A stretch of 64,000 nucleotides of DNA from an uncultured bacterium. Lineage in GTDB: Bacteria; Auribacterota; Tritonobacteria; UBA1439. The DNA lies in assembly GCA_964460305.1 (NCBI GenBank), contig CAYWRA010000002.1:3089-67088 (forward strand), written 5' to 3'. The notes under the pieces were generated by a model. The model saw only the letters and a program-made list of their open reading frames with translations, searched no databases and was not told the DNA's origin. Position 1 is the stretch's first letter, and each line of letters starts with the position of its first letter. A program made the position numbers and the translations under genes. Shown here in pieces: positions 2,767 through 60,073 of the stretch.

Positions 2767-2848
2767 AGCCCGATCTATTCATCAACTTTGATCGGTCGAT
2801 AAGTGCTTACTGTGGCGCAAATAGTTAATCAAAATTGTCACATTTGAC
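2767..2848 (+). repeat. REP/MITE-like repeat family A, copy A1
   Basis: The element agcccgatctattcatcaactttgatcggtcgataagtgcttactgtggcgcaaatagttaatcaaaattgtcacatttgac is shared with copies at 12551, 24774 (-), 38903, 47437 and 48648 (-). Confidence 0.85.
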
Positions 2849-2999: not shown

Positions 3000-3017
3000 T
3001 TGTGAATGTTTTCACAA
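3000..3017. promoter_or_regulatory. Candidate Rex operator (TTGTGAATGTTTTCACAA)
   Basis: This is a perfect 18-bp palindrome matching the Rex consensus TTGTGAAnnnnTTCACAA. It lies 64 bp upstream of the rex start codon. Confidence 0.6.
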
Positions 3018-3042
3018 AATAATGTTGCCATTCATGGGGACA

Positions 3043-3058
3043 GTGATATACTTATCAC
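3043..3058. promoter_or_regulatory. Second palindrome GTGATATACTTATCAC with adjacent TTGTGAA half-site
   Basis: The palindrome lies just upstream of the rex ATG. A TTGTGAAAAAAGG half-site sits at 3062-3074. Confidence 0.35.
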
Positions 3059-3080
3059 TTATTGTGAAAAAAGGAACAAT

Positions 3081-5884: not shown

Positions 5885-5893
5885 GAGATCGAC

Positions 5894-7669: not shown

Positions 7670-7691
7670 TGAATTCGGGAGAGTCGTCGCC

Positions 7692-8201
7692 ATGCCATGC
7701 TCCATAAAAACCGAAGACACGCGCAAGACCGAATTAAGGGATTATCTTGGCGGCCTTAAAGGTGTTGAGCGGTCGGAGTCGAACCTGATCGCCGTTTTGC
7801 ATAGGGTCCAGGAGATCTATGGATATCTGAGCAGGGAAGCGCTGGATGAAGTGGCCCTGAACATGAACATTCCGACTGCGCACATCTGGGGGGTCGCCAC
7901 ATTTTACCATTATTTCAAACTCAAGAAGCCGGGGAGGCACGTTATCTCGATCTGCCTGGGGACCGCCTGCTACATCAAAGGTGTTAAAGAAATATTGGAG
8001 AAATTGCGGGAGGAGCTGAACGTCGATATCGGAGGGGTTAGTCCCGACGGTTTGTTCGGCCTGGAGGAGGCGCGCTGCCTCGGGGCATGCGGCCTAGCGC
8101 CGGTGATGATGATCGATGGCAAGATCTTCGGCACACTGACCGCGAAAAGGGTTTCCGAGATCCTTCAGGAATACCGAAAGCGCGCCGAAAAGCAACCATG
8201 A
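7692..8201 (+). CDS. hydC: [FeFe]-hydrogenase NuoE-like 2Fe-2S subunit (HydC)
   Basis: The product has the thioredoxin-like [2Fe-2S] motifs CLGTACYIKG...CLGACGLAPV. Its stop codon overlaps the hydG start (ATGA). Confidence 0.75.
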   Translation: MPCSIKTEDTRKTELRDYLGGLKGVERSESNLIAVLHRVQEIYGYLSREALDEVALNMNIPTAHIWGVATFYHYFKLKKPGRHVISICLGTACYIKGVKEILEKLREELNVDIGGVSPDGLFGLEEARCLGACGLAPVMMIDGKIFGTLTAKRVSEILQEYRKRAEKQP

Positions 8202-9571: not shown

Positions 9572-10655
9572 GGCGGTTGCGGTGCTTGACGACATAATGA
9601 AGAAGGTTTACGAATTTCCCGGCGAGAGCCGTGAAGAAATCGAGCAACTCCTTTTATTGGAGGATAACGCCAGGATAGAGCGCCTGTTTTCATTCGCCGA
9701 TAAAGTGCGGCGTAAATTCATGGGTGACGGGGTCCTCTTGAGGGGGATAGTGGAATTCTCCAACCGCTGCTCGAACACCTGTTTCTATTGCGGCCTGAAT
9801 GAGAGGAACTCCGGCATCGAGCGTTACGTAATGAGCATCGATGCAATACTCGGAGCCGTCGGCGTCTTGAGCTCGGTGAAAATAAAAACGGTGGTCTTGC
9901 AGTCGGGCGAGGATGAATGCCTCGATCCCCTCTGGCTCGCCCGCCTTATCGGAGAGATAAAGAAAAACCACGGCCTGGCCGTCACCCTTTCCGTCGGCGA
10001 GAAATCCCGCGATGAATATAAGCTATGGCGTGAAGCGGGAGCGGACAGGTATCTGTTGAAAATCGAGACGACAGACCCTCAAGTTTATTCCGCCGCCCAC
10101 GACGGCAGGCGGTTGGCGGCGCGATTAAAATGCCTCGATGACCTCATCGATCTTGGGTACCAGACTGGTTCGGGAATGTTGATCGGGTTAAGGGGGCAGA
10201 CCGTCGGTTCCATAGCCAGGGATATTTTATATCTCAAAGAGAAAGAATTCGACATGATCGGGATAGGCCCTTTCGTTCCTCATTCGGGCACCGTTTTCGC
10301 AAACGATCCCGCAGGGGACGTCAGGTTGACGCTAAAGGCCCTGGCAATAACCCGCCTGGTTACAAAGAATGCGCATATACCGGCGACGGCGGCGATGGGG
10401 AGCATCGGCGGGCACGATTACAGGGTGGACGGGCTTAAAGCCGGCGCTAACGTCCTGATGCCGAATTTCACTCCCATGAAGTATAGGAAATTGTATGAGA
10501 TATACCCGGGGAGGATTTGCATAAACGAAGCCCACGGGGCGTGTGTATCGTGTATGGGCGCAAAAGCGGCATCAGCCGGGCGGTTTATAGATTATTCGGC
10601 GGGCCATTCGCTTAAAAAACACCGGGCGCTGAACCCTGGAGGAGAAAATGAATAG
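9564..10655 (+). CDS. hydE: [FeFe]-hydrogenase maturase HydE (radical SAM)
   Basis: The product has the radical SAM motif CSNTCFYCGLN. The start overlaps the hydG stop (ATGTCTGA). Confidence 0.75.
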   Translation: MSEAVAVLDDIMKKVYEFPGESREEIEQLLLLEDNARIERLFSFADKVRRKFMGDGVLLRGIVEFSNRCSNTCFYCGLNERNSGIERYVMSIDAILGAVGVLSSVKIKTVVLQSGEDECLDPLWLARLIGEIKKNHGLAVTLSVGEKSRDEYKLWREAGADRYLLKIETTDPQVYSAAHDGRRLAARLKCLDDLIDLGYQTGSGMLIGLRGQTVGSIARDILYLKEKEFDMIGIGPFVPHSGTVFANDPAGDVRLTLKALAITRLVTKNAHIPATAAMGSIGGHDYRVDGLKAGANVLMPNFTPMKYRKLYEIYPGRICINEAHGACVSCMGAKAASAGRFIDYSAGHSLKKHRALNPGGENE

Positions 10656-11871
10656 CACACCTCTTAGCAACAGATTGCACATAGGCATTTTCGGCAGAAG
10701 GAACGTCGGCAAGTCTTCTCTCATAAACGCCCTCACCGGCCAGGCGGTGGCTATAGTTTCCGAACTCCCTGGTACTACGACGGACCCCGTTCATAAGGCC
10801 ATGGAGATACACGAGATAGGCCCGGTGGTGGTGATAGATACCGGCGGGCTTGACGACGCCGGCGCGGTCGGGGCAATGCGCGTCAAGAGCGCGTACAAGG
10901 TGCTTGCCAAAACGGACGTTGCGCTACTCGTCGCGGACAGGAGCGAGCCACTTGGGCCGTGCGAGCGCGATTTTATAAACGAAATTGAAGCGAGGCGGAT
11001 CCCGGTAATCATAGTCGTAAACAAAACGGACGAGGGAAGCCCCGATAACCGGCTGATGAGCGAAATTAGTTCGCTGAAGCTTCACCATGTATGTACAAGC
11101 GCGCTCACGGGTAAAGGCATGGCGGAGCTGCGCGGCAAGATAGTCGAGTGTACGCCCAATGATTACGAGAGGAAAACCATCTTAAGCGATCTTCTGTCTC
11201 CCGGGAGCCTTGTGCTTATGGTGGCGCCTCTCGACATGGAAGCCCCGAAAGGGCGTCTCAAGCTTCCACAGGTCCAGACCATCAGGGACATTCTCGACAA
11301 TAATTGCTCCGTCCTTATGACCAAAGAAACCGGGCTGGAAAGGGAGCTCAACACCCTCCGGAAACCGCCGGATCTCGTTATCACCGAGTCACAGGTTCTT
11401 AGCGCCGTCGGGGCGGTTCTTCCCCCCGACATTCCCCTTACGACATTTTCCATTTTATACGCCAGGTACAAATGCGAGTTGGATACGCTCCTCCGCGGGG
11501 CCGAGGTAATAGACGAGCTGACCCCGGCTTCGAAAGTTCTTGTCGCCGAAGCCTGCACGCATCACCCCATTGGGGATGATATCGGGAAAGTCGTTATCCC
11601 AGGGCTACTTAATTCCAGGTTCCCAGGGATCAGTATCGAGCATGTTTCCGGCTTTGATTTTCCGGCTTCTCTGGACGGTTATTCCCTCGTTATCCACTGC
11701 GGCGGTTGCATGATAAACCGGAGGGAGATGATGGGAAGGATGGCCGCCGCCGCGGGGGCTTCCGTCCCGATTACGAATTACGGGCTCTTTCTCGCCCATA
11801 TGCACGGCATGCTCGACCGGGTCACAGCGCCATTCGGTCGCTTAGCCGGCATGACGAAATCGATTGCATGA
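10648..11871 (+). CDS. hydF: [FeFe]-hydrogenase maturation GTPase HydF
   Basis: The product has a P-loop, GRRNVGKSSLINALTG, and the C-terminal cluster-binding motifs CTHHP and HCGGC. The start overlaps the hydE stop. Confidence 0.8.
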   Translation: MNSTPLSNRLHIGIFGRRNVGKSSLINALTGQAVAIVSELPGTTTDPVHKAMEIHEIGPVVVIDTGGLDDAGAVGAMRVKSAYKVLAKTDVALLVADRSEPLGPCERDFINEIEARRIPVIIVVNKTDEGSPDNRLMSEISSLKLHHVCTSALTGKGMAELRGKIVECTPNDYERKTILSDLLSPGSLVLMVAPLDMEAPKGRLKLPQVQTIRDILDNNCSVLMTKETGLERELNTLRKPPDLVITESQVLSAVGAVLPPDIPLTTFSILYARYKCELDTLLRGAEVIDELTPASKVLVAEACTHHPIGDDIGKVVIPGLLNSRFPGISIEHVSGFDFPASLDGYSLVIHCGGCMINRREMMGRMAAAAGASVPITNYGLFLAHMHGMLDRVTAPFGRLAGMTKSIA

Positions 11872-12550: not shown

Positions 12551-12652
12551 AGCCTGATCTATTCATCAACTTTGCTCGGTTGATGAATATCCTACCGTAG
12601 CGCAAATAGTCACGCAAAACTGCCACATTCCGCGCCAGACTAGTCGGTGCGG
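12551..12652 (+). repeat. Repeat family A, copy A2, with ccgcgccagactagtcggtgcgg palindromic extension
   Basis: agcctgatctattcatcaactttgctcggttgatgaatatcctaccgtagcgcaaatagtcacgcaaaactgccacattccgcgccagactagtcggtgcgg. Confidence 0.8.
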
Positions 12653-12690
12653 GGCTTAACTACAAGTCAAGACCGCCCCTGCCGTCATAC

Positions 12691-16386: not shown

Positions 16387-16703
16387 AAAATAAGTGTCCT
16401 TTCCCGTTTATTGACCTGATCTATTCACTAACCACTTTATCCACGGATTGTAACCACAGCGAAAAGTTGAAAGCAAAAAGTTCAAAGCGCAGTTACATTT
16501 CCGGACTCTTGGCTTTAAACCTTAGGCTGTTTTTACATCCCCCCGAAGGGGCCCCCCGTTGGGGCGCACTATCCGCGGATCCCTCTCTTCGTTCGTGGAC
16601 CAACCGATTCACCAGCCGAGAACGGCACTGGCCATTTGTAAATCATCAGAACCGCACAAGCCAAATTTATAAGAAATCCATATGGAAATCTATAAGAAAA
16701 GCG

Positions 16704-22452: not shown

Positions 22453-23094
22453 TCACACCCCACGTGTTCCCGGGGACCAGATGTATTTATGCGCCTGTAG
22501 TTGGAACCTGGCCTTCAAATTATCCCGAAGCATCCAGGTGATTATTTCCCTGGGCTCGATGCGGCCGAACGCCGCGCTCAGGAGGATTTCGCACCTTCCT
22601 TCAAGCCCTAGGCTCAAGATCCGGTCTTTTGCCCAGTCATAATCCCCGCGCGAACCGATGACGAACTTGACCTGATCCAGAGCGGTAAGATGACCGGCGT
22701 TGCCGAGCAACATCTTTTCGCTCTCGCCAGAAGAGGGGCATTTCAGGTCCATTATGCGCACAACCCTTTTATCCAAGACCGAAATGTCCAGAGAGCCGTT
22801 GGTCTCGACGAGCACGGTGTGCCCCCTCTCGCAAAGGAGCCTCGCCAGCTCCGGCGTCTCCCGCTGCAGAAGGGGCTCTCCGCCAGTGATCTCTATGAGA
22901 TGAGCGCGCATCTCCCCCACCCGCCCGAGAACGTCGCCGAGTTCCATGTCCCGGCCGTTCTCCCAGGCGTCAGGCGTGTCACAATAAGAGCAGCGCAGGT
23001 TACATCCCGCGAGCCGGATAAATACACAGGGGAGACCGACGTACGTCGATTCCCCCTGGATGCTCTTGAATATCTCTTTGATTTTGAGGCTCAT
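22453..23094 (-). CDS. queE: 7-carboxy-7-deazaguanine synthase QueE (radical SAM)
   Basis: The product has the QueE N-terminus IFKSIQGESTYVGLPCVFIRLAGCNLRCSYCDTP. Confidence 0.75.
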   Translation of the reverse strand: MSLKIKEIFKSIQGESTYVGLPCVFIRLAGCNLRCSYCDTPDAWENGRDMELGDVLGRVGEMRAHLIEITGGEPLLQRETPELARLLCERGHTVLVETNGSLDISVLDKRVVRIMDLKCPSSGESEKMLLGNAGHLTALDQVKFVIGSRGDYDWAKDRILSLGLEGRCEILLSAAFGRIEPREIITWMLRDNLKARFQLQAHKYIWSPGTRGV

Positions 23095-23283
23095 TAGCCC
23101 GATCTATTCACCAAGGGACGAAAGACCAAGTCGGCGAATGGGAGAGACGGTGAAGGGGCGATTTTGAATCTCCAGAGTCGCCCCCGAAGGGGTCCCTTCG
23201 GGACGACTCGCCCATTCCCCGATTCACCGGTTCGTATAGCGGTTAGGGAATCACCCGGCCCGCTATCCCGCGCCACGATTTCC

Positions 23284-24372: not shown

Positions 24373-24773
24373 TCTATAACATGCACTCATGACGGCAGTC
24401 GATCTCCGAAGGTGGGATTGTATCATAGCCTTCCACAACAGAGGAAGGCAGGATACGGGAATCCACCCGGAGAGTGGGAAAATAGTGATGTTTACCACAG
24501 ATTAACGCAGATGGATAAACGGACGACAGGGAGCACAGCGACACTGGTTCTCACGAAGAGTAAAAGAGGGAAAGAGAAGAGCATAAATTCTTGCCCTCTT
24601 TTACTCTGTGTGAAAAATTGCACGGAGGATCAGGACAATCAGGTGCTCAAGAACCTCCCCCGAAGGGGCCCCTTCGGGGTGCGCAAATCTCGTGTAATCT
24701 CGTGGTTTCAAATTGAACAGTCCCGATTTGTAGCTGAAAACCAGCGACAAGAAACTGTTGTTGCTGCTTTAAC

Positions 24774-24873
24774 CCCGCACCGACTAGTCTGGTGCGGAAT
24801 GTTGGCAGTTTTGCATAACTATTTACGCTACAGTAAGTATTTATCGGCCGATCAAAGTTGATGAATAGATCAG
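24774..24873 (-). repeat. Repeat family A, copy A3 (reverse orientation)
   Basis: This is the reverse complement of the A2 copy, including the ccgcaccgactagtctggtgcgg palindrome. Confidence 0.8.
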
Positions 24874-25177
24874 GTTAACAGCCTTTGTGGTGAGGCTCGG
24901 CGTGAGATGCTTCGTCGTCCCACACAACGGGACTCCTCGCAATGACATGTGCAACATCTTCTGCTCCCCGTGATGCCTTTTTTCTCTTTTACTCTTTGTA
25001 AAGACAGGGGGTTCTTATAATCTGCGTTCATCCTCGGCAAATAACTTCTTCTCTGTGAATTCTCTCCATGCTCTCCGTGCCTCCGTGGTGAAATATGGAA
25101 GCCACAGTTCCCGTCCGCAAGAAACCGTTTTTGCCGCCCCAGCGGCCTTTGTGTTACAATCGCCGACAGGCAATGGA

Positions 25178-31739: not shown

Positions 31740-31818
31740 CAAAATTCAAATGACAAAACACAATGAGGTTTTGTCATCTTGCCATTTGTAATTCATTTGT
31801 CATTTGGTATTTGTCATT
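31726..31818 (+). repeat. Repeat family B (AAATGAC/GTCATTT heptamer arms with a gacaaaacacaatgaggttttgtc core hairpin), copy B2
   Basis: Other copies lie at 41704-41790, 46918-46985 (-), 49330-49420 and 53600-53690. A degenerate copy lies at 26868-26975. Confidence 0.8.
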
Positions 31819-31842
31819 GGGGATATAGATCGGGACAACGTC

Positions 31843-36876: not shown

Positions 36877-36965
36877 AAAATCCCAAATCCCAAACTCCAA
36901 AACCCAAAGAATCTGGCGCCCTATACGCATCGTTATTGGGTTTTGGAGTTTGGGATTTGGGATTT
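36877..36965. repeat. Family C long perfect hairpin (28-bp stems of AAATCCC-type heptamers)
   Basis: aaaatcccaaatcccaaactccaaaacccaa-N29-ttgggttttggagtttgggatttgggattt. It lies between convergent genes. Confidence 0.85.
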
Positions 36966-36991
36966 ATGCTGCGGTTGATGCATAAATCAGG

Positions 36992-37817: not shown

Positions 37818-38145
37818 TATCACCACCTCCTCGAACGGATAAACCCGCAACCGGTAGTATTGTGGTACGCCTCCCCCGCGCCAACGGTTCAACTCCGTTC
37901 CAGCATTGTTATCATTGTACGGCAGGGACCTCCTTCCGCGCAAGAGCGAACTTCGGGGGGTGTAGCCCCATTTTGTCTCCAATGAAACCACATCCCGTCC
38001 CAAAGGGATCCCTTCGGGAAAGGGACCCCTTTGGAGGAGGCCACTGAGAAGGATAAATCCAAGATCAATTTCAACCACGCCCCACGCCTAACGCCGTCAC
38101 GCCCATTCGCCGCTTGGGATTTGGGATTTGCCTTACGCATTCAGG

Positions 38146-38902: not shown

Positions 38903-38978
38903 TAGCCCGATCTATTCATCAACTTTGATCGGCCGATAAATACTTACTGTAGCGCAAATAGTTAATCAAAATCGTCGC
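38903..38978 (+). repeat. Repeat family A, copy A4
   Basis: agcccgatctattcatcaactttgatcggccgataaatacttactgtagcgcaaatagttaatcaaaatcgtcgcatt. Confidence 0.8.
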
Positions 38979-38979
38979 A

Positions 38980-41556
38980 TTATCGCTCGGTCTGCACAGA
39001 GGGGTTTGACCGTTTTGACGACCTAACTCCCGCGAAAAATCTCTCCATCTCCGCGAGCGTTCCACGCGCGTCGAGGCGGCAGATGGAAGTGGCGGGGAGC
39101 GAGTCCAAAAAGAGTTTCCCATACCTCCTGCTGTGTACGCGGGAATCAAGGATGAGCACCGCGCCGATATCCTCCCGGTGCCGTATCAATCGACCGAATC
39201 CCTGCCTGAATTTAATCACCGCCTGGGGGACGCTGTATTCCAGGAACGGATCCCCGCCGGCAAGCTCTAGCGCCTCCACCCGCGCCTGCTGGATCGGTTC
39301 GTCCGGGACCCTGAACGGCAGCCGCGTCAGGATCACGCACTGCAACGCCTCTCCCCGCACGTCAACGCCCTCCCAGAAGCTGTCGGTGGCGAAAAGGACC
39401 GATCCCTTCTCCCTCCTGAAACGGTTGAGTAGCGCGGTGCGGTTATCGGTCCCCTGCTTGAGCACGGTGAGCCCCGCACCCTCAAGATCGTTCGCCAGCC
39501 GCGCATACAGCTTCTCGAGCAATCTGTAAGATGTGAAAAGCACAAACGCGCTCCCCCGGCTGATCGCCACCGCCTGCCCAACCAACTCCGCCAGCATGTC
39601 TTCATAGCCTTCACTACCCGGTTCGGCAATTCCCCTCGGGGCGGCTACAAACGCCTGGGCGCCGTAGTCGAAGGGTGAGGGAAGGATGCAGCACTCCAGC
39701 TTGTCCTTCTCCGCCTCGCCCAGCCCCACGCGCGAGCGAAAATAATCGAACGCGCCCCCCACGGTGAGCGTCGCCGAGGTCATGATCACCGTGTCAAACC
39801 GTTCGTAGATTGCCTCGCGCATTCCCGCCGAGACATCAAGGGGGGCGGCGCAGAAGTTCAGCCTCTCCCACGCACCTTTGCCTTTGAGCTCAAGCCAGCG
39901 GCAGACTCCATCCCCTCCCTTCATAAAAAAGGTGAGGCACTCGACGTAATGCTCGACCCGTTGCCGCATCGAGCCGATTTCGACCATGGCGGACTCGACC
40001 ATTTTCTTGCGGCGCTCGGGAAGCGCGCCGAGAAGTTTCAGGAGATCCGCGAGTTTTTCCGAGAACGATCTGATGACGCCGAGCAGCTCTTTGAGAACGG
40101 GGCAAAGCGCCCCTTGCCAGAACGGCGAAGCGGCGATGTCCGGCGTAATCCTGAGGCTTCGGCCGTTCTCCCCATCCGCACCCTTGCACGCCATCTTCAA
40201 TTCCGCCGTGAGCCGGTCCATGGCGGCGGCGATCTTTTTCTCCGCGGCGAGCCGCTCGGGGATTATCGTATCCGTGATCGAATCGAGCGCTCCCGATATC
40301 CGCCCGCGATCCTCGCCATCGATCTCGGCGTGCAGCTTCGCACAGAGGAACGGGAGCAGTCCCCTGCCGGTCTCCCTCACGCCCTGAAGGCGACGCAATA
40401 TCCTGAGCAGGCCGTATTTCGAAACCTGGAAGCCGAAATACTCCGTGGCGACGTCCTCGACGTGCTGGGCCTCGTCTATGATAATCCTTTGGAACCGCGG
40501 AAGCACCGCCGGCCGATCATGGCCCTCCATGCGGCTGCGCACCGCAAGATCCGCCATTAGCAAATGGTGGTTTACCACAAGGACGTGGGCGCTTGAGGAT
40601 TCCCTCCTCGCCTTGTAGAAAAAGCATTCCGCGTAATGGGGGCAGTGCAGGCGCGTGCACTGGTCCGCCTCTGAGCAGACGCGCTCCCAGTTCTCCCTGC
40701 GCGGGATGAAGCTCAGGTCGGAAAGGCTCCCGTCTTTGGTTTTCTCCGACCACTGAAAGAGCTCGCACAACTCCTCCTGCCCGCCGGCGGCGAGAAGTAG
40801 CCTGTTCTCTTCTCGCGCAACGGCGAGCTTCCGCAGGCAGAGGTAGTTGCTCCGCCCCTTCACCAACACCGCCTTGCACTGGAGCCCCTTCAGCTTCTGT
40901 AGGAGCGGCAAGTCTTTCCCGATGAGCTGCTCCTGGAGATTGATGGTTTTTGTCGATATCACCACCCGCTCGTCGTTGTTGAGGCTCCACGCTATCGCGG
41001 GGATGAGATAGGCGAGGGATTTGCCCGTACCCGTGCCAGCCTCGATCAAGGCGATGCGGTCCTCGTTGAAGGCCTTCGCCACTTTCGCCAACATCGTCTG
41101 CTGCTCTTCACGGCACTCGAAGTCGGGAAGCTCCCTGCTTACGGGGCCGCCGGGACGGATATACGCGGCGAGCGCCTCGACGTCAAGCGGGGTTAGCTCC
41201 TCCTCCCGTGAGGGTTCCACGACGGGGTATACCCGCTCGACGTCATTATCGACGATGTAAAAACCACAGCCCCCGCCCCCCAGCTCGGACGCGACCGCGA
41301 GGTCGGCATTGGAAGGGGAGAGCGGCCCATCGGGATGGTTATGGATGACAACGTCGCCTAGTTCGACGCTTCTCGTAATGGCGGGAACGCACTCGCGGTC
41401 GCCCCTCGCGAGCACGGAAACGGTCCTTACGATAAGCCGGTCATCCGTCTTACCGAGGAAAAACACCTCGTTGCCGTCAGCCGCCTCTATCGACGACCGC
41501 ATTTCATCGACCGCGTCTGGATGGATGTACTCCGTGACCTCGATTGATTTCTTCAT
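38980..41556 (-). CDS. JAB/MPN-domain protein fused to an Fe-S Rad3/DinG-family DNA helicase
   Basis: The N-terminus carries the JAMM motif HNHPDGPLSPSNAD. The helicase part has Walker A TGTGKSLAY, the DEAH box IIDEAQH, and an Fe-S Cys cluster (C...CTRLHCPHYAEC). A C-terminal helicase domain follows. Confidence 0.65.
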   Translation of the reverse strand: MKKSIEVTEYIHPDAVDEMRSSIEAADGNEVFFLGKTDDRLIVRTVSVLARGDRECVPAITRSVELGDVVIHNHPDGPLSPSNADLAVASELGGGGCGFYIVDNDVERVYPVVEPSREEELTPLDVEALAAYIRPGGPVSRELPDFECREEQQTMLAKVAKAFNEDRIALIEAGTGTGKSLAYLIPAIAWSLNNDERVVISTKTINLQEQLIGKDLPLLQKLKGLQCKAVLVKGRSNYLCLRKLAVAREENRLLLAAGGQEELCELFQWSEKTKDGSLSDLSFIPRRENWERVCSEADQCTRLHCPHYAECFFYKARRESSSAHVLVVNHHLLMADLAVRSRMEGHDRPAVLPRFQRIIIDEAQHVEDVATEYFGFQVSKYGLLRILRRLQGVRETGRGLLPFLCAKLHAEIDGEDRGRISGALDSITDTIIPERLAAEKKIAAAMDRLTAELKMACKGADGENGRSLRITPDIAASPFWQGALCPVLKELLGVIRSFSEKLADLLKLLGALPERRKKMVESAMVEIGSMRQRVEHYVECLTFFMKGGDGVCRWLELKGKGAWERLNFCAAPLDVSAGMREAIYERFDTVIMTSATLTVGGAFDYFRSRVGLGEAEKDKLECCILPSPFDYGAQAFVAAPRGIAEPGSEGYEDMLAELVGQAVAISRGSAFVLFTSYRLLEKLYARLANDLEGAGLTVLKQGTDNRTALLNRFRREKGSVLFATDSFWEGVDVRGEALQCVILTRLPFRVPDEPIQQARVEALELAGGDPFLEYSVPQAVIKFRQGFGRLIRHREDIGAVLILDSRVHSRRYGKLFLDSLPATSICRLDARGTLAEMERFFAGVRSSKRSNPSVQTER

Positions 41557-41739
41557 GTTGTGGGAGCATTATAACACAACGTGCGCATGCGCCCGCCCGC
41601 GTTGGGAATTTGAACCATCTCTGGAAATGACGAATACCCCGCCTAACAACCGGCCTCGTCCCAAAGGGATCCCTTCGGGAAAGAGGCCCCTTTGGGGCGG
41701 GCAGGCAAATGACAAATGTCAAAACACAATGAGGTTTTG

Positions 41740-43344
41740 TCATTTGGTCATTTGTAATTCATTTGTCATTTGCGCTTTGGTATTTGTCATTATTTTGCCC
41801 CTGCACGCATCGCGATGCTGGACGAGCAGCGAATCGTCCAGGTATACCGGGTTCAGGCGCGCGGCCTTCTCATACGCCTCGATCGCCCTGCCGTACTCCC
41901 CCCTGGCCTCATAGACCATGCCGATGCCTATATACACGTTGGCCGAGTAAACGGCGTCGCGGGTCAGGCCCATCGCCCGATTGAATTCCCGGAGCGCCTC
42001 GTCATACCTGCCGGTCATGCGGTAGACGTTTGCAAGATTGTTGCGGGCGGAGGGAAAATCAGATCTGAGATTCACCGCCTGCATCAGCATCTCCTCCGCC
42101 TCCTCGTAACGGCCCCGTCGCATGTATACGATCCCAAGATTGTTGTAGGCATCGGCGCTTTCAGGGCTGTGTGCGATGACCGCCTCCCACAGCGTCGCGC
42201 TGTCACGCCAAACGGTATTCCGCGCCATCGTAAGGACGGCAAAAAGTGTGACGACCGCGCAGACAGCGGCAGCCCCCAGGCGGAAGCGAGGCCGCAGGAG
42301 ACCCGCCGCCGCGGCGTGCCCGCAGAGGAGACAAAGGGCGGCGCTTGGGAGATAGAGATACCGGTCGGCCTTTATCATGTTCACCGGGATGATCTGGAGC
42401 ACGGGTATGAGCGATACCGCGCCCCAGAAAAAGCAGAATGAGAACAGTCCCTTGCCCCGGCGCCTCGCGACCGCCGCAATGCACAGAGTAATTATCGCAA
42501 CAAGCGGGAAAAGGCACCGGATCTCCGTCGCCCGGGAGGGTAACTCCACCAGATAGAGAGAGGAGAGGTCGACGGGAAGGACAAGCATCCTGATGTAATC
42601 GCCCAGCACGACGCACATCGCGCGCATCGTGCCGTAGATGCTCCCGCCATGGTAGACAAAGCGCAAGTCTCTATGCGGATCCAGGAATATGGTGGCGATT
42701 GCGATGGGCAGAAGTGGCAGCGCGTAGGGGAACTTGTGCGGTATACTCCGCCCCAGGCCGATCCGCCGGCCATTACCGAGAACGTCGTATAGGATGAGCG
42801 CCAGAGGGAGTGTGATCATCAACGGTTTGGAACAGATGGTACAGAGGTAGAAACAGACGCTCAGGGAGAATAGCCCTCCCCCCCGTCTCTCCCGGCTTCG
42901 GACGTATGCCAGGAACGAGAGGAGATAAAAGAGCATTCCCAGGCCGTCCTTTCTGCTCGAGAGCCAGGCGACCGATTCCGCGTGCAACGGGTGTACCGCA
43001 AAGAGCGCCGCTGCCGCAAGGGCCGCCTCCACCTTGCCTATCATCTCTCCGCAGAGGAGGAAAAAGACGAGCACGACGAGCGCATAGATGAGCAGATCGG
43101 TTATGTGATACCCCACCGGGTTGAGTCTCCAGAAGAGATAATCGAGGCTATGGGAGATCACCGGCAGGGGGGGATAGCTTAAGTGATAATTCTTGATGAC
43201 GTGGGGGATGTCGAGCGTGCGGATGGCCTTGTTCCTGACGATGAGATGCTCATCGTCCCAATTGGTAAAATGATTGCCGAGAATGTTGGCGTAGACCACC
43301 AGTACCAGGGCAATCAGGCATAAAATCGCTATCCATGTCCTCAC
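41740..43344 (-). CDS. Polytopic membrane protein (PMT/TMTC-like glycosyltransferase fold) with C-terminal TPR repeats
   Basis: About 11 TM helices are predicted. The product has the TPR segments AEAYNNLGIVYMRRGRYEEAEEM and RNNLANVYRMTGRYDEA. The last ~15 codons read through a family B repeat. Confidence 0.5.
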   Translation of the reverse strand: MRTWIAILCLIALVLVVYANILGNHFTNWDDEHLIVRNKAIRTLDIPHVIKNYHLSYPPLPVISHSLDYLFWRLNPVGYHITDLLIYALVVLVFFLLCGEMIGKVEAALAAAALFAVHPLHAESVAWLSSRKDGLGMLFYLLSFLAYVRSRERRGGGLFSLSVCFYLCTICSKPLMITLPLALILYDVLGNGRRIGLGRSIPHKFPYALPLLPIAIATIFLDPHRDLRFVYHGGSIYGTMRAMCVVLGDYIRMLVLPVDLSSLYLVELPSRATEIRCLFPLVAIITLCIAAVARRRGKGLFSFCFFWGAVSLIPVLQIIPVNMIKADRYLYLPSAALCLLCGHAAAAGLLRPRFRLGAAAVCAVVTLFAVLTMARNTVWRDSATLWEAVIAHSPESADAYNNLGIVYMRRGRYEEAEEMLMQAVNLRSDFPSARNNLANVYRMTGRYDEALREFNRAMGLTRDAVYSANVYIGIGMVYEARGEYGRAIEAYEKAARLNPVYLDDSLLVQHRDACRGKIMTNTKAQMTNELQMTK

Positions 43345-43495: not shown

Positions 43496-44836
43496 CTACT
43501 CGATGGCTATTTCGATGGAATCAAGCGCGAGCGCATTCGCCGGCGAGGGAGCGGTCCCCTCCGGCATGAGGCCCGCATAGACCGTCCATGTCCCTGCCGG
43601 AACGTTCGCGGGCATGGACATATCGATAAGATCTTTCGTCACCGCCTGCTTCAAGCCGGGCACTCCCGCGACAAAAGCGCTGAGCCCCTTCACAAGCCCT
43701 TTCTGTGTGAGCGAGTAGACTACGCCAGGCCCCTTGAGTACGACGTAAGCGTCGAACGGCTGCGTGGTCGGCTGCACCGCAACAGAGAGGACGAACCTAT
43801 CGCCGGCGCCGAACGATGCGGCGTTTGCCACGATCCCGATCGCAGGCTGGACCGGGGCGATCTGGTATATGTCAGCCGGGGTCGGCCCTCCGAACTCATC
43901 TGCATAGGCCGCGGCGAGCTTCGCGGAAGTCCACGTGTCAGGCGCAAACGATTGCTCGCGCTTGTAGATCGCGAGGATGCTGAATCCGCCCGCGATGTCC
44001 GTGCTCAACGTGGCAAAACCCGTGAGGGGGGAGAGCCGGTATATCTTCCCGTGGTGATTGTCCGAGACATACAGGTCGCCGCTCGAATGCCAAGCCACGT
44101 CGACGCCCCCGTCAAGGATCGCGATCTGCTGGGCCTCTGAGGGAGTGAGCGCCGCGCCATGTGCGAGTGCGGACTCGAGATCCGTATGACCGAACTTGAA
44201 CAGCGTGAACGCGCCCGTATCGGGGATGGGCCACGTGTCGGTATTGCGCAGATAGTAGAGGTTCCCTTCGTCGTCAACGTCTATGCCGCCCGAATAGGTG
44301 TGATCGACCGATACCACCTCCGTGAGCGAGCGCGCCGCAACGTCGAGATAGTAGATCTTGTTGGTCGCGCCGGCCGGATTGGCGCTCACGTAGCAATGCG
44401 TCGAGTCGATGAACGCGAGGTCGTACGCGCCGTCGAAGCTGCCGGAAGCCGGGGTGAGCTCGGTTACGGCATACGGGCTGGAGAGATCCATGCGCCTCAC
44501 CTTGTAGGTGGAGCTCTCGCCGAAAAGCGCAAACGAGCCGTCGGGGCTCACCTTCACGAACGCCCCCCATACGTTCCCGCCGAAGTCATACTTTTTCTCC
44601 ACGCCGGCGGGGGCGCCGTCGTCATCGGCGTCGACTACTCCGATGTAGCTGTTCACGGCGCCGGTCGTATCCACGTACATCCCGATGATGTCGCCGTTCG
44701 GCAGATAATCGAAACCCCCGGCGAAATTCTGGCCGAGCGTCTCCGCCTCGTACCCCGAGGGCATCTGGATCGCCCCCTCGGTCATCGTCGCTGCCATTAC
44801 GCACGCTAGTGCGCCGCCAATCAAACATCTTCTCAT
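43496..44836 (-). CDS. Secreted beta-propeller-like hypothetical protein
   Basis: The product has the signal peptide MRRCLIGGALACVMAATMTEGA. Its beta-rich segments are repeated. Confidence 0.4.
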   Translation of the reverse strand: MRRCLIGGALACVMAATMTEGAIQMPSGYEAETLGQNFAGGFDYLPNGDIIGMYVDTTGAVNSYIGVVDADDDGAPAGVEKKYDFGGNVWGAFVKVSPDGSFALFGESSTYKVRRMDLSSPYAVTELTPASGSFDGAYDLAFIDSTHCYVSANPAGATNKIYYLDVAARSLTEVVSVDHTYSGGIDVDDEGNLYYLRNTDTWPIPDTGAFTLFKFGHTDLESALAHGAALTPSEAQQIAILDGGVDVAWHSSGDLYVSDNHHGKIYRLSPLTGFATLSTDIAGGFSILAIYKREQSFAPDTWTSAKLAAAYADEFGGPTPADIYQIAPVQPAIGIVANAASFGAGDRFVLSVAVQPTTQPFDAYVVLKGPGVVYSLTQKGLVKGLSAFVAGVPGLKQAVTKDLIDMSMPANVPAGTWTVYAGLMPEGTAPSPANALALDSIEIAIE

Positions 44837-45364
44837 TCCGTTCTCCTCTCTTTTCGTTTTTTCCAGGGTGTCTATGTGAACCCCGGAGCGGTCGGCCGCA
44901 GACAACAAAAAAGCCAGCTCCTCAAGGTTTAAGAAGAACTGGCTTCATCCATACCGGCTTCTCCCACCCCGAAGAAGATTCTCCCTGAGGTGTCCTGGCT
45001 TGTGGCATTAAATGATCAGCGGCCTTCCCAGAGCAGCGACCCTTCGATCCACTGATCCAGTGACCGGCTTACTACGGCAAAAAGTTTAAGGTATAAAGGA
45101 ACCGGCTTTAAACTTTAACTTTAAGCTGTTTTTTCCGCCACTTACAGTTGCGGGGGCAGCAGCGGTTTTTCACCGCTTTCCCTCATAAGACGTATTTCAA
45201 AGATCGGCGCTATTATACGCTCCCCCGGAGGGGTGTCAAATGAATTATGCATAAAACATCAAAGTACGCGATAAACCGTAACCCATAAGCCGTAAGTGCT
45301 TTGATCCTATAGCATAAGGCTTACAATTTAAGGCATTCAGCGCCCTCGATCTGCCCTCGCAACT

Positions 45365-46917: not shown

Positions 46918-46985
46918 GAATGCCAAATACCAAAATGACAAAACCTCATTGTGTTTTGCCATTTGACATTTGGTATTTGCCATTG
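46918..46985 (-). repeat. Repeat family B, copy B4 (reverse orientation)
   Basis: gacaaaacctcattgtgttttgcc is the reverse complement of the family B core. Confidence 0.7.
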
Positions 46986-47274
46986 CGGTCTTACCAACGC
47001 ACTACTTCGGTGAGCACATAGCGTTTGCAGTCGTCGAATTTTTGACGCACCGAGCTGCATCCGCTGACGGCAAGGAGGGATTGGATGAGGATCAAGATGA
47101 GCAGCAACGTCGGAACAGTTCTTCTCGTTTTCACGTTTTTAGCCTCTTGCCGAGAGTAGCAAAGGAGTTCCCTCAAGACAATCCCGAAATGGCGGACGAA
47201 TTTACCAGGAGTCGCGGAGAAGATTTTTTGCCGCGGATGGACGCTGATTATAGCTTACTGCTTACCACTGCTCT

Positions 47275-47395
47275 TGTTGGGATTTTGGATTTGGGGGTTG
47301 CCTGCCCGCCCCAAAGGGGCCTCTTTCCCAAAGGGATCCCTTTGGGAAAGAGGCCGGTTGTCAGGCGGGGGATTTGGGATTTTCCAATAATATTG
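47275..47395. repeat. Composite repeat: family C heptamers flanking a family D nested palindrome
   Basis: gggattttggatttggg...ccccaaaggggcctctttcccaaagggatccctttgggaaagaggcc...gggggatttgggatttt. This is the reverse complement of 41655-41700. Confidence 0.8.
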
Positions 47396-47436
47396 CTTGT
47401 CATACCGGGGTAGTATACAATAAATTATTGCATATT

Positions 47437-47510
47437 AGCCTGATCTATTCATCAACTTTGATCGGCCGATAAATACTTGCTGTAGCGCAAATAGTTAATC
47501 AAAATTGTCA
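47437..47510 (+). repeat. Repeat family A, copy A5
   Basis: agcctgatctattcatcaactttgatcggccgataaatacttgctgtagcgcaaatagttaatcaaaattgtca. Confidence 0.8.
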
Positions 47511-47521
47511 GAGCCGCCCCA

Positions 47522-48094
47522 ATGCAAACAGACAACCATACGATATTCCGTATTCTAAGTGAAGCAGCCGCGGTGGTAGTCATCGGTTTCCTCGTCGGTT
47601 TCGCCAACAACGCCCTTTCCTCGCGGAGTATCCCGATCGTCGGCAACTGGAACAAGGCCTACGGTGTGCCATCGCCGGGGGGGGCCAACGACGCCACGCG
47701 CGGAAACGTGGAGATCGGCGCGGAGGAGGCTCTGCGCTTCTTTCGGGAGAACGCCCTCTTTCTCGACGCCCGGCCGGCTGAAGCATACGCGGAGCGCCAC
47801 GTCCGCGGCGCATACGCGCTCCCCGAAAACGGGGCAGCGGCCCGAATGGAAGAGGTCTTTGCGATGGCCGAGAGACACAAAAAGATCGTGGTCTATTGCC
47901 AGAGCATGGACTGCGACGAGGCCCATCTCCTAGCGGGGACGTTGCATGGAGCCGGCATCAAAGAGGTTTTTGTTTTTGCCGGGGGCTTGAAGGAATGGGA
48001 GGCGGCGGGTTATCCCATGGAGAGTTCCGTCACGACCCCGGCGCCGCCCGATCAGCCGGCCGCGCCCTCCGAGCCGTCAAGGGGGCTGCCGTGA
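47522..48094 (+). CDS. Membrane-anchored rhodanese-domain sulfurtransferase
   Basis: The product has an N-terminal TM and a rhodanese fold with catalytic-loop Cys in VVYCQSMDCDEAH. Confidence 0.6.
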   Translation: MQTDNHTIFRILSEAAAVVVIGFLVGFANNALSSRSIPIVGNWNKAYGVPSPGGANDATRGNVEIGAEEALRFFRENALFLDARPAEAYAERHVRGAYALPENGAAARMEEVFAMAERHKKIVVYCQSMDCDEAHLLAGTLHGAGIKEVFVFAGGLKEWEAAGYPMESSVTTPAPPDQPAAPSEPSRGLP

Positions 48095-48106
48095 AACACG
48101 GAAGAA

Positions 48107-48576
48107 TGCAATTCATCCATCATTCGACGGTCCTGATCATGCGCCTGTTCCTCGGCGGGCTGTTCATCTACGCAAGCCTGCACAAGCTGGGCGACCCGGC
48201 GTCGTTCGGCAAGATCATCTACGGGTATAAGATACTTCCATCCTGGGCGATCAACCTCCTTGCAATTACTCTTCCGGGCGTGGAGCTTGTCTCGGGCACA
48301 CTTCTTGTCCTCGGCCTCTTCAGCAGGGGGGCGTCGTTTATCATCACGCTCAGCCTCGGCGTTTTTATCTGCGCGATCAGCTACAACCTTTGGAGAGGGC
48401 TTGAGTTCGACTGCGGCTGTTTCTCCTTCGCGCATTCATCGCAGGGGGCCGCCGCCGATCTCCTGATCCGCGATCTCGTCCTCATCGCACTGAGTCTCCG
48501 GGTATTGCTCGCCAAGCGCTATCCCTGCTCGCTGGACTGGCTCTTCGGCCTCGAACGCGGGGGGGGGGCCTCGTAG
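48107..48576 (+). CDS. DoxX/MauE-family membrane protein
   Basis: The product has 4 TM helices and the MauE-type DCGCFS motif. Confidence 0.6.
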
Positions 48577-48647
48577 AGAAACAGCCTAGCCTGCCATAGT
48601 CCCGGATTTTGCCTCGAAGAGATCGAGAAAAAAGGGACGGTTCTGGC

Positions 48648-48749
48648 CCCGCACCGACTAGTCTGGTGCGGAATGTTACAATGTTGATTAACTATTTGCG
48701 CTACAGTAAATATTTATCGGCCGATCAAAGTTGATGAATAGATCAGGCT
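48648..48749 (-). repeat. Repeat family A, copy A6 (reverse orientation, with the ccgcaccgactagtctggtgcgg palindrome)
   Basis: Together with A5, this is an inverted pair bracketing the rhodanese-DoxX pair. Confidence 0.8.
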
Positions 48750-49026
48750 GGAGAGCCGACAGTTGTTTCTTGTTCCGCTTTCCCTCTCTTTTACTCTTTG
48801 TGAAAAATTATTCCTCCCCCAAAGGGCCCCTTTCGGGGCGCGGCAAACAACTTTCTCTCTGTGAATTCCTCTCCCAAGGGGGTCCCTTCTCGATATTGGG
48901 ATTTCAGTTTGATCCCCTTGCCCATCACGTTGGAATAGTGTACAGTAGAATTATGGCGGGCACATTGATGCGCCGGGATAGCGTTATTAGGCAGAGGGCG
49001 AGGATTGCATCAAGGGAAGGAGGGTT

Positions 49027-49332
49027 ATGATGAAAGAGTTTTTGAAGAAGGGGTTGCTCGTGGGGCTCGGTGCGGCGGAGTTCACGCGGGAGACGCTCGC
49101 GAAAACCATTGTAGAGCTCGAGAAGAAAGGCGAGGTCAGCAAGGACGAGGCCAAGAAAATCATGGCTTCGTTCTCGAAGGTTGCCCGGAAGAGGCGCAAG
49201 GAGCTTGAGACGGGCCTGGAAAAGGCATTCGCGTCGCTCCTCGGGAAAACCCGCATCGCCACCGCCGACAGGCTCGAAGAGGTCGAGAAGCGGCTTAAGA
49301 ATCTGGAGAAAAAACTCAAGACCAAGAAATAA
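49027..49332 (+). CDS. Phasin-family (PHA granule-associated) small protein
   Basis: The product has MMKEFLKKGLLVGLGAAEFTRETLAKTIVELEKKGEVS and a Lys/Glu-rich coiled coil. A strong GGAAGGAGGG ribosome-binding site is present. Confidence 0.55.
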   Translation: MMKEFLKKGLLVGLGAAEFTRETLAKTIVELEKKGEVSKDEAKKIMASFSKVARKRRKELETGLEKAFASLLGKTRIATADRLEEVEKRLKNLEKKLKTKK

Positions 49333-49420
49333 TGACAATGTCAAATGACAGATGACAAAACACAATGAGTTTTTGTCATCGGGGCATTTGTAATTCATTT
49401 GTCATTGGGTATTTGTCATT
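49330..49420 (+). repeat. Repeat family B, copy B5
   Basis: aatgacaatgtcaaatgacagatgacaaaacacaatgagtttttgtcat...tttgtcattgggtatttgtcattt. Confidence 0.8.
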
Positions 49421-49429
49421 TATGCAACG

Positions 49430-52257: not shown

Positions 52258-53604
52258 ATGCGAAAGATCAAAATTCCAGCATGCATGCTAGTTTTTGTGA
52301 TGCTTCTTGTTGAGTCTCTACAGGCCGAGTGGGTCACGGACAAGAAGGTGGATGAGACGCTCAAACGCGTGGCGGCCTTCGCTCGCTGCGAGAAGGAACT
52401 CGCGACGTCAAAATCCGAAAGCCAGCGGCAGGCGCTCCGGGGACAGCTCGATCGGATGAAGAGAGATCTCACGCGCGAACGGATCGACTACGGGAGCTTC
52501 ATCGGCATCCGCGGCCAGGCTGAGGACATCCAGGGAGACTGGTTCTTCGATGGGCAGTGGATCGCGAACAGCGTCTACTGGAGGATATTCCGCCTCTTCA
52601 ACCTGCCGAGGAACCTGCGCCGCCTAGTGGGCCGTCCCGCTCGCGCGAGCGATCTGACGGCAAATGGCGGAATCCCCGACTCGGCGTTCTTCTTCAATAC
52701 CGACTTACGCGCCATCACGCCCGGCATCTTAAGGGAGCAGGACGAGGCCATACGCCCGCGCGGGAAAATCACGATCACACGCAAGAAGCAGGAGGGCCAG
52801 TCCAAGGGCTTCTATGGCATGGACAGCCGCGGCGTCGAGTACATCATTATCGTCGATCCGCCGGGGATGGAAGAGCAGGTCACGTCAGCGGAAGTGATCG
52901 GCTCCACGCTAATGCGGATGGCAGGCTATAACGTCGCCGGGAGCGCCATCGTCACGATAGAAGGGACTGCCAATCCCGAGTTCGACGGCCGGCGCGGAGT
53001 GGCCACGAAACTCGTCAAGGGGTATAAGGGCCACTGGACTTACCGCGCGTTCGAGGACCGGCGGGAGATGCGCGCGGGCATGGTCTTCGCCGCCTGGATC
53101 CACAACACCGACTGGCTGGACCACAACACCGGGATCAGCGTGATCGAGGTTGACGGAATCCCTCTCACCCGCTACTACGTCTTCGACTTCGGTGGATCGC
53201 TCGGTAGCTGGAACATACGCACCAAGGAGCCGCGGGACGGCTGGGAGCATTACGTCAGCTTCCACGAGTTTTTCCTCTGGCCGATTGCGCGTCCCCTCGA
53301 ACTTGCTGGGCTTGTCAGGAAACCGTACGCCGCCAGCGGCGCTCAGTACAGCGAGGCCGTGGGTTACTTCGACAGCAACTTCCGCCCTGACCGCTACAGG
53401 CCGAACTATCCTAACATGGCCTGGGCGGAGATGACGGCCGAGGACGGCCGCTGGGCCGCGGGCGTGATCGCCGGCTACAGCGAGGAGCAGATCCGGACCG
53501 CCGTGGATCTCGCCCGCTACACTCGCGCCGAGGACGCTGATTACGTATATAAGACGCTGCTCGCAAGACGGCAGAGGATACTGGATCATTATAACCCGAA
53601 ATGA
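52258..53604 (+). CDS. Secreted hypothetical protein with protein-kinase-like catalytic signature
   Basis: A signal peptide is present. The product has WIHNTDWLDHN (an HxD...N catalytic-loop-like motif), followed ~25 aa later by DFGGS (a DFG-like motif). Confidence 0.35.
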   Translation: MRKIKIPACMLVFVMLLVESLQAEWVTDKKVDETLKRVAAFARCEKELATSKSESQRQALRGQLDRMKRDLTRERIDYGSFIGIRGQAEDIQGDWFFDGQWIANSVYWRIFRLFNLPRNLRRLVGRPARASDLTANGGIPDSAFFFNTDLRAITPGILREQDEAIRPRGKITITRKKQEGQSKGFYGMDSRGVEYIIIVDPPGMEEQVTSAEVIGSTLMRMAGYNVAGSAIVTIEGTANPEFDGRRGVATKLVKGYKGHWTYRAFEDRREMRAGMVFAAWIHNTDWLDHNTGISVIEVDGIPLTRYYVFDFGGSLGSWNIRTKEPRDGWEHYVSFHEFFLWPIARPLELAGLVRKPYAASGAQYSEAVGYFDSNFRPDRYRPNYPNMAWAEMTAEDGRWAAGVIAGYSEEQIRTAVDLARYTRAEDADYVYKTLLARRQRILDHYNPK

Positions 53605-53690
53605 CAAATGACGAAACACTATGAGGTTTTGACATTTGGTCATTTGTAATTCATTTGTCATTTGTGCTTTGTCATTTGTCATTTGTCATT
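53600..53690 (+). repeat. Repeat family B, copy B6, with four tandem TGTCATT heptamers
   Basis: aatgacaaatgacgaaacactatgaggttttgacat...tttgtcatttgtgctttgtcatttgtcatttgtcatt. Confidence 0.8.
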
Positions 53691-59037: not shown

Positions 59038-60073
59038 GACTCACATTCTAACACATTCCGCCGCGGGCCTGGTCAGCGAGTAGGTCAAATTAGATTATTC
59101 AGTAATGGCTCTTGCCGGATTTTTGTGCATATGTTGATAGAGGGACAATGCGCAACATATTATCAGGGGAAGAAATATCACCGAGCATGCTCTCCACATC
59201 TCCTCTCCCCTCCGATGGGGAGAGGCTGGGTGAGGGGTGATTTGAAAAAGACTGCATCTACACCCTCACCCGATAATTGTGAAGGTGTGAAATATCAACA
59301 CACTGTCAATTGCGAGCGGGGCGAAGCAATCTCGCTTCCGAGCAGTTGCGCACCTGCCGATTGGAAAAGGGGGGCTTCCGGGACGGCTATGCAGTTTTAT
59401 CTTGCGCGCGTCAAGGAAGATGGGTTTGGCTTTTGATGTTTTATCCCGCCGCAGTTTTGCTTCGACTGCATTTCCTGCCTTCCGAGATTCGTAGAATGAT
59501 GCGGATAATAGTGCGTACTTTCGTGAATAGTGCCCCCCCGCTCCACCCTTAACCCGGATTATTCACCTGATGGTCAGGAACAAGTATTCATCTGATGCGT
59601 AAAGCATGTCATTCCGGCGCAAGCCGGAATACAGATCCATAAGCCTTGACGCTGGATCCCTGCTTCCGCAAGGATGACAGGTTGTGAGTTTGATAAATAG
59701 ATCAGTTTACGGATGCGCTATGCCCGTGGATAACTCAAACAAGCCCCTATAGGAACCAATCTCCGTTAGAAAGCCCTTCTTAAGGTCTAACCCACCGAAA
59801 GGCGTCTAATTCTTTGTTTTGCAAGCCATTACGCAGGTCCGCTCCCAATTTTAGGCATGCCCAACATCCATTTTATATGGATGAAATGTGGATGATTTTC
59901 GAGGGTTGTGAAAATCAGGTGGTTGTCGGATAATATTGGTTTTTCTGAACAAAGGGGGATTCGTCGTATCATTGGCACAACACTCCTTATCCTCAGTGCG
60001 GTAATCTTAAGAGAGGGTGTTATTTCGATTGTTGTTTTGCTTCACGATGCAATCCAAAGGTGTCGTACAGAAT

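Follow-up and report, generated by a model that had tools for sequence, protein, structure and literature searches.

MITE-like repeats around a rhodanese-MauE operon in Candidatus Auribacterota

The rhodanese-MauE operon and its flanking repeats

Two neighboring genes on the + strand form the center of the locus described here, which lies in a 64-kb stretch of DNA that was analyzed as a whole and is referred to below as the window. The first gene (47522..48094) encodes a 190-aa protein with a hydrophobic N-terminal stretch and a rhodanese domain (PF00581, E=4.3e-15). The second gene (48106..48576), which starts 12 nt past the rhodanese stop codon, with the same spacing in the relatives, encodes a membrane protein of the MauE/DoxX family that matched PF07291 (E=1.4e-27) and PF07681 (E=1.6e-8); as far as these domain matches indicate, the label DoxX is acceptable and MauE is the better match. 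Upstream of both genes, a promoter/operator block was identified at 47393..47434 (+ strand), which consists of TTGCTTGTCA followed by a 6-1-6 palindrome, CAATAA-A-TTATTG (47418-47430). This palindrome overlaps -10-like hexamers, and a promoter-like site is predicted at 47397-47426.

Two copies of a short repeat, termed family A, flank this operon. Copy A5 (47439..47510, + strand) is a short form that begins with CCTGATC, is preceded by TTAG (47435-47438), and is devoid of a 3' hairpin. It lies just downstream of the promoter/operator block and thereby separates the predicted promoter from the rhodanese start codon. It can be aligned to the other family A copies up to 47506-47510, and its right limit is ambiguous because TCAG at 47507-47510 may be either part of the element or native or target-site duplication sequence. 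Copy A6 (48647..48747, - strand), which is 101 nt long, corresponds to the full-length form and ends in the hairpin CCGCACCAGACTAGTCGGTGCGG. CTGG is found on both sides of it (48643-48646 and 48748-48751), which represents a 4-bp direct duplication, CCAG/CCAG in the orientation of the element.

The conserved tips of the two copies, at 47439 in A5 and 48747 in A6, both point outward. A repeat search of the window recovered the corresponding inverted arms at 47437-47508 and 48678-48749, which comprise 72 nt, are 96% complementary, and are spaced by 1169 nt, in agreement with the original prediction that inverted copies surround the rhodanese/DoxX pair. This bracket had been described as flanking the genes exactly, which holds only approximately, since the rhodanese ATG follows A5 at a distance of 11-15 nt and a spacer of 70 nt lies between the end of the MauE gene and A6. 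On the + strand, no convincing intrinsic terminator was found between the MauE stop codon and A6, and folding of a transcript covering 47433-48760 predicted the pairing of its two ends over approximately 72 bp. A second repeat family, with inverted copies at 46918-46977 and 49337-49396, brackets the same locus one step further out. Brackets are common in the source genome.

Copies, ends, and target sites of family A

Family A was found to have exactly six copies in the 64-kb window (nhmmer, E values of 3e-20 to 5e-36), and its terminal 15-mer occurs 10 times in the window when up to 2 mismatches are allowed, as compared with 0.35 expected occurrences. All six copies are intergenic and have mixed orientations relative to the adjoining genes. 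A1 (2769..2844, + strand), a short form with the left flank CTAG, lies between an amino-acid permease gene and the gene of a Rex-like regulator. A2 (12553..12654, + strand), a full-length copy of 102 nt, is located between hydF and a convergent gene for a TLC-type transporter. The equally long A3 (24773..24874, - strand) separates an MBL-fold hydrolase gene from a radical SAM gene, and A4 (38906..38981, + strand), with the left flank TTAG, directly follows the stop codon of a gene for a DinG-like helicase and represents either the short form or, with a degenerate 3' end that extends to about 39008, the full one. The neighbors of the family are unrelated housekeeping genes (Rex, HydF, TLC transporter, MBL hydrolase, and DinG-like helicase), and the copies themselves, at 68-102 nt, fall below the upper size of about 500 bp for MITEs and are too short to code for a transposase.

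The full-length copies A2, A3, and A6 (101-102 nt) terminate in the hairpin CCGCACCAGACTAGTCGGTGCGG, which A1, A4, and A5 do not possess. Two of these three hairpin copies, A2 and A6, lie just 3' of a convergent gene and A3 does not, and with n=3 the idea that the hairpin end serves as a terminator was set aside. The idea of a promoter-carrying element was likewise dropped, as no sigma-70-like promoter site is present inside A5 or A6. Single copies gave z values of -0.05 to -3.2 relative to shuffled sequences, with no significant structure beyond the terminal hairpin or an internal palindrome of A2. No family A copy matched a family of Rfam 15, whose sole match in the window is a cobalamin riboswitch at 44970-45216, and a permissive Rfam scan of 47150-49050 returned only noise (E>=0.4). 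An identity as RNA gene or riboswitch was rejected, given that there is no Rfam match and that the copies fold no better than shuffled sequences apart from the hairpin and the palindrome.

The flanks of the full-length copies are TTAA/TTAA for A3, CCAG/CCAG for A6, and TTAG/(C)TTAA for A2, and the probability of at least two perfect 4-mer flanks among three full-length copies by chance is about 5e-5. The short forms A1, A4, and A5 (left flanks CTAG, TTAG, and TTAG) show no convincing duplication and may therefore be truncated copies or have another origin. A potential duplication at A5, TTAG ... TCAG with three of four positions identical, was not counted because the family consensus there, TCAC, is matched by TCAG as well. 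In family A, the right end ...GTCGGTGCGGGG does not repeat the left tip CCTGATCTATTCATCAAC in inverted form; it consists of a GC hairpin that bears no relation to this tip. An internal inverted copy of the tip is retained in A2 alone, where it forms a perfect 11-bp stem. Because there is otherwise no inverted tip on the right-hand side, the family is referred to as MITE-like.

The tip itself was also encountered in other genomes. The invariant 19-mer was scanned against one genome per species, and among the matches listed the tip (TTAG)CCTGATCTATTCATCAACTTTG occurred in MAGs of Victivallales (at least 5 contigs), Kiritimatiellae, and Verrucomicrobiota. In these MAGs, the tip is followed by unrelated sequence and then by an inverted copy of the tip, giving rise to elements of 44-223 nt in which it constitutes terminal inverted repeats of 17-21 nt. 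These elements measure 47 nt in L002 (flanks TTAG/TTAG), 44 nt in L004 (CTAG/TTAG), 223 nt in L006/L018 (TTAG/TTAG), 110 nt in L008 (TTAA/CTAA), and 173 nt in L010 (TTAA/TTAA). Since the tip is found as inverted termini with matching 4-bp flanks, it would be the transposase-binding end of a PVC-wide group of MITEs. In metagenome contigs, at least 3 loci with the 21-mer tip were detected, of which two duplicate a coding-like site of Verrucomicrobiota and one duplicates L006; the family A-specific pattern GATCTATTCATCAACTTTGNTCGGNNGAT had no match among the matches listed for JGI metagenome contigs, and a blastn search of PLSDB plasmids with A6 gave no match. Three tip matches in viral contigs were without the flank or end features of the element and were judged to be due to chance.

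No transposase was identified by Pfam among the approximately 45 ORFs of the window. These all have housekeeping functions and include an [FeFe] hydrogenase with HydE/F/G, Rex, NikR, CbiM, shikimate enzymes, a DinG-like helicase, and UbiB. One-ended tip copies in L007, L009, and L010 were considered as possible neighbors of a transposase, and only ordinary genes were found beside them. The PVC loci covered and the scanned viral contigs contained no autonomous element with family A termini, and the window, these loci, and the viral contigs yielded no transposase bounded by CCTGATCTATTCATCAAC, whether of the IS5 type or of another.

Small, repeated, hairpin-containing sequences in intergenic DNA are also a property of the REP, BIME, and REPIN families, which often occur in inverted pairs. 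It is very improbable that family A is an extragenic palindrome of the REP/BIME type spread by a RAYT-type enzyme, or else a multicopy small-RNA gene. Apart from the short, intergenic, and hairpin-containing nature of the copies, such an identity could be read from the - strand of A6, where the hairpin is followed by GGGGCCAGAACCGTCCC and a T-run and was scored as terminator-like; however, the T-run past A6 belongs to the flank and not to the element. REPs are linked to RAYT genes and are not known to create target duplications. Family A, in contrast, has copy-specific 4-bp duplications, and no RAYT or Y1 transposase domain was seen among the window ORFs. Further points against this alternative are that the homologous tips in other genomes are true terminal inverted repeats with duplications, and that the element has neither an Rfam match nor an internal promoter-like site.

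The locus in related genomes

The closest named relatives of the proteins encoded in the window belong to Candidatus Aureabacteria, now Candidatus Auribacterota, a phylum of the PVC group, and identical short contigs come from the trench metagenomes of the Little Forest Legacy Site (PRJEB14718). Orthologs of the rhodanese are 65-79% identical and always adjoin a MauE gene, a pairing that was seen in L020, L022, L027, and L028. One of these is L022, the Ca. Aureabacteria MAG GCA_026392035.1, with 67% protein identity and a gene order that is, gene for gene, that of the window: peptidase C1, small lipoprotein, rhodanese, MauE, 100-aa phasin-like protein, ABC1/UbiB, peptidase M90, 449-aa protein, and HEAT/cNMP protein. 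A sensitive blastn search detected no family A copy at the L022 locus. In L020 and L026, the rhodanese gene is found beside the same small lipoprotein gene and the promoter block, and L028 keeps the promoter block.

This block (AATAATATTGCTTGTCA ... ATAAATTATYGCAT) is conserved in L020 (75%), L022, L026 (79%), L027 (79%), L028 (74%), and L025. In all five of L020, L022, L026, L027, and L028, the promoter block leads to the start codon within 6-17 nt and A5 is missing, whereas the window and the 98%-identical strain L025 have about 70 nt of A5 at the junction between promoter and ATG. A comparable absence was noted for other copies: A6 is not present downstream of MauE in L022, L027, or L028, and A3 is not present at the orthologous intergenic region of L036, in which the flanking synteny is kept, nor does L037 have a family A copy. 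The relatives are 65-82% identical at the protein level, which precludes a base-by-base alignment of most intergenic DNA, and no nucleotide-exact empty site was pinpointed for A6 or A3 in these too diverged regions. A rearranged family A-like fragment occurs in L020 at a different locus, so the family is present in a relative of about 75% identity, but not at the sites occupied in the window.

Taken together, the classification of family A as MITE-like holds on sequence grounds: it is short, noncoding, multicopy, and intergenic, its full-length copies have 4-bp flank duplications, and copies are missing from the orthologous sites of relatives. To this extent, the MITE part of the original prediction stands, with the flank duplications, the empty sites of the relatives, and the match of the tip to the terminal inverted repeats of small PVC elements in its favor.

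The other part of that prediction, that the arrangement resembles a mobilizable cassette, is not borne out. In L022, the synteny around the gene pair is fully conserved and the repeats are missing, and, in the one window and the relatives covered, the repeat copies do no more than mark intergenic DNA; these are the two observations that had been named beforehand as refuting a cassette. It is highly unlikely that A5...A6 is a functional composite, that is, a MITE-bracketed transposon with a rhodanese-MauE cargo moved by a transposase acting in trans. With two outward-pointing CCTGATCTATTCATCAAC tips and 96% complementarity between its 72-nt arms, the pair has the geometry that a transposase would need, and gene-mobilizing pairs of MITEs are documented. 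The closest analog is found in Acinetobacter, where two copies of a 439-bp MITE flank class 1 integrons, a 5-bp duplication bounds the whole unit, and the unit occurs in varied contexts (PMC3934969). Both this unit and A5...A6 consist of two copies of one MITE around genes, but A5...A6 shows neither an outer duplication nor a variable context of the cargo, the two features that define a mobilized unit, and its cargo is syntenic in repeat-free relatives.

In addition to L022, the two genes are paired and free of repeats in L020, L027, and L028, and the upstream site of L026 is repeat-free. Duplications of 4 bp were found at full-length copies and not around the A5...A6 unit as a whole, of which the outer flanks are TTAG (47435-47438) and CTGG (48748-48751). 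The complete CTGG duplication that A6 has of its own implies that A6 inserted alone. The window is moreover without a transposase, and A5 is equally similar to A4 and A6: over the 68-nt core, the identity is 95.6% for A5-A6 (3 differences), 95.6% for A4-A5, and 94.1% for A4-A6, indicating no special match between A5 and A6. As a past event, composite transposition is already contradicted by these observations. The geometry would in principle permit it.

In a chance model, six copies were distributed at random and with random orientation over the intergenic regions of the window that measure 40 nt or more, of which there are 37. An outward-inverted pair around 1-2 genes resulted in 17% (length-weighted placement) to 23% (uniform placement) of the trials, and the bracket arrangement itself is therefore not beyond chance expectation; its appearance in about 20% of random placements also speaks against a composite.

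Origin and possible consequences of the arrangement

The explanation favored here, to which we assign a probability of about 0.8, is that family A is a lineage-specific, nonautonomous MITE-like element, and that A5 and A6 are separate insertions beside a native, vertically inherited operon. The element, of about 70-102 nt, would owe its dispersal in intergenic DNA to a transposase that is encoded elsewhere, presumably a DDE-type enzyme acting in trans, which would make 4-bp target duplications, usually at YTAR-like sites. One copy, A5, landed in the 5' leader of the rhodanese-MauE/DoxX operon and the other, A6, inserted as a complete 101-nt unit with its 4-bp duplication in the spacer downstream of the operon. 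The inverted bracket would then be a by-product of a high repeat density and not the boundary of a cassette.

As to the mobilizing enzyme, a 4-bp YTAR target (TTAG, TTAA, and CTAG) is the classic target of the IS5 family. The IS5 subgroup of this family, with its derivative MITEs, and family A would share both the 4-bp target duplication and the YTAR preference, but the A6 site, CCAG, is non-YTAR and departs from an IS5-type preference. The IS1380 and IS701 families generate duplications of 4-5 bp and have ends starting with CC, and either of them may equally well have mobilized family A.

The closest analogs of family A are bacterial MITEs such as the Correia elements (CREE) of Neisseria. Both are short (about 100-150 nt for Correia elements and 68-102 nt for family A), noncoding, and dense in intergenic DNA, and both have short target duplications (PMC2649163; PMC10969869). 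Both are also often located between a promoter and a gene or just past genes and are likely to be cotranscribed (PMC2649163; PMC10969869). They differ in their ends, in that Correia elements are bounded by clear terminal inverted repeats of 26 bp and duplicate TA, whereas family A has a conserved left tip, an unrelated right hairpin, and a 4-bp duplication.

The position of A5 suggests consequences for the operon mRNA. A5 probably lengthens its 5' leader, which would measure about 95-100 nt with A5 transcribed within it as compared with about 20-30 nt otherwise. Should transcription continue across A6, the two ends of the mRNA may form a 72-bp duplex. Such an end-to-end duplex would be a possible substrate of double-strand-specific RNases, as for Correia elements, which are cotranscribed and bound or cleaved by RNase III (PMC2649163).

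This leads to the alternative that the insertions have been co-opted, such that the A5 leader and A6 trailer as a pair, or each of them alone, control mRNA stability, processing, or translation in a Correia-like manner. Several observations are consistent with this idea, namely, the location of A5 between the conserved promoter block and the ATG, the lack of a convincing terminator between the MauE stop codon and A6 on the + strand, the end pairing of about 72 bp predicted for the 47433-48760 transcript, and the Correia precedent of cotranscription with RNase III binding or cleavage (PMC2649163). Furthermore, A5 and A6 are kept in every contig of the Little Forest lineage that covers the respective site, and A5 is also present in the strain with the 98%-identical rhodanese. 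However, the other four copies have neither a partner nor a consistent orientation to genes, and single copies have no significant structure beyond the terminal hairpin. The arrangement is limited to one lineage and gives no sign of selection, and co-option appears unlikely. Also unlikely is that the arrangement represents either an exaptation, in which the duplex of about 72 bp closes the ends of the mRNA, or a nascent composite transposon that awaits a PVC-wide transposase recognizing CCTGATCTATTCATCAAC. If exaptation were true, an operon with a sulfur/redox function in an uncultured member of the PVC group would be under the control of a double-strand-specific RNase or under translational control.

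With separate insertions as the preferred explanation, an inverted bracket, however eye-catching, is a by-product to be expected where small mobile repeats crowd the intergenic DNA. Annotation should treat the rhodanese-MauE pair as a native operon rather than mobile cargo, and the arrangement has little import beyond this annotation; the locus would be an ordinary one, with genome litter around a long-resident, sulfur-related gene pair. Family A itself adds an undescribed MITE-like family to Candidatus Auribacterota, and A5 offers a clean natural case in which a repeat has come to lie between a gene and its conserved promoter/operator. Finally, the 22-26-nt tip that family A has in common with small elements in MAGs of Victivallales, Kiritimatiellae, and Verrucomicrobiota hints at a transposase family that circulates in the PVC group.

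Promoter block and divergent gene of the rhodanese locus

The promoter block 5' of the rhodanese gene is conserved between the window (47393-47434) and the rhodanese loci of related genomes, namely, L020 (3838-3885), L022 (5056-5105), L026, L027, and L028. Inside this block, a 6-1-6 palindrome overlaps the -10 region, reading CAATAA-A-TTATTG in the window and L028 versus CGATAA-A-TTATCG in L020, and the between-genome changes are symmetric. This palindrome looks like an operator of a dimeric regulator. Runs of GGGATTT heptamers (TTTGGGA-type) sit 5' of promoters in the window (36878-36965, 47269-47290, and 47370-47385) and in relatives alike (L020, 3815-3850; L036, a locus orthologous to the surroundings of family A copy A3, about 3715-3750), and are therefore conserved as a type. 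At 36878-36965 the heptamers make a perfect 30-nt inverted repeat.

The divergent gene upstream of the rhodanese (46991-47176, -) encodes a small lipoprotein-like protein with the motif ...LLAVSGCSS..RQKFDDCKRY.LTEVVRW. This gene keeps its divergent position in those relatives whose contigs are long enough to reach there (L022, 4864-5007; L020, 3496-3666; L026, 2-106), its product measuring 47-61 aa across the window and these genomes, and it probably belongs with the rhodanese to one functional module.

Dispersed repeats, solo tips, and family A copies

The block of lipoprotein, rhodanese, MauE, and phasin genes is also flanked by two inverted copies of a second dispersed repeat family of about 85 nt (31741-31825, 41707-41791, 46918-46984 (-), 49343-49427, and 53599-53683), made up of runs of AAATGAC/TTTGTCA heptamers and the hairpin AAAACACAATGAGGTTTT. 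No copy of this family was found in the relatives' loci. A third repeat type, consisting of GC-rich hairpins with the general pattern CCCAAAGGGRYCCCTTYGGG (47304-47369, 48812-48842, 37996-38041, 41657-41702, 23170-23202, and 24646-24678), occupies many intergenic regions, frequently adjoining the other repeats.

The MITE tip, the conserved left end of family A, also stands alone or in variant form, without the remainder of the element (CCYGATCTATTCAYC, with TTAG/CTAG flanks), at 23094-23112, 16415-16429, 36977-36991 (-), and 59692-59706 (-). One of these copies, TTAGCCCGATCTATTCACC, directly adjoins the start codon of a radical SAM gene (22453-23094). These tips are probably either remnants or other families using the same transposase. 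At 38978-38982, the final bases of A4 that can be aligned to family A overlap with the TAA stop of a DinG-like helicase gene (38980-41556, -), whose C-terminus may have been reshaped by the A4 insertion. In L020, a relative at about 75% identity, a family-A-like 3' half with hairpin directly adjoins an inverted left-tip copy (1243-1312), making up a copy that is rearranged or nested and whose locus is not orthologous.

Cobalamin riboswitch and hydrogenase cluster

A 470-aa ORF (43496-44908, -) is preceded by a cobalamin riboswitch (44970-45216, -; Rfam RF00174, 57 bits). This ORF matches no Pfam family and may encode an uncharacterised B12-related transporter or receptor. In the cluster at 3006-11871, a Rex-like regulator precedes a NuoF-like subunit, an [FeFe] hydrogenase, a 2Fe-2S thioredoxin-like subunit, and HydG/E/F-type maturases. 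A fermentative, hydrogen-producing lifestyle has been proposed for Ca. Auribacterota (PMC9324843), and this cluster is consistent with an H2-producing fermentative lifestyle.
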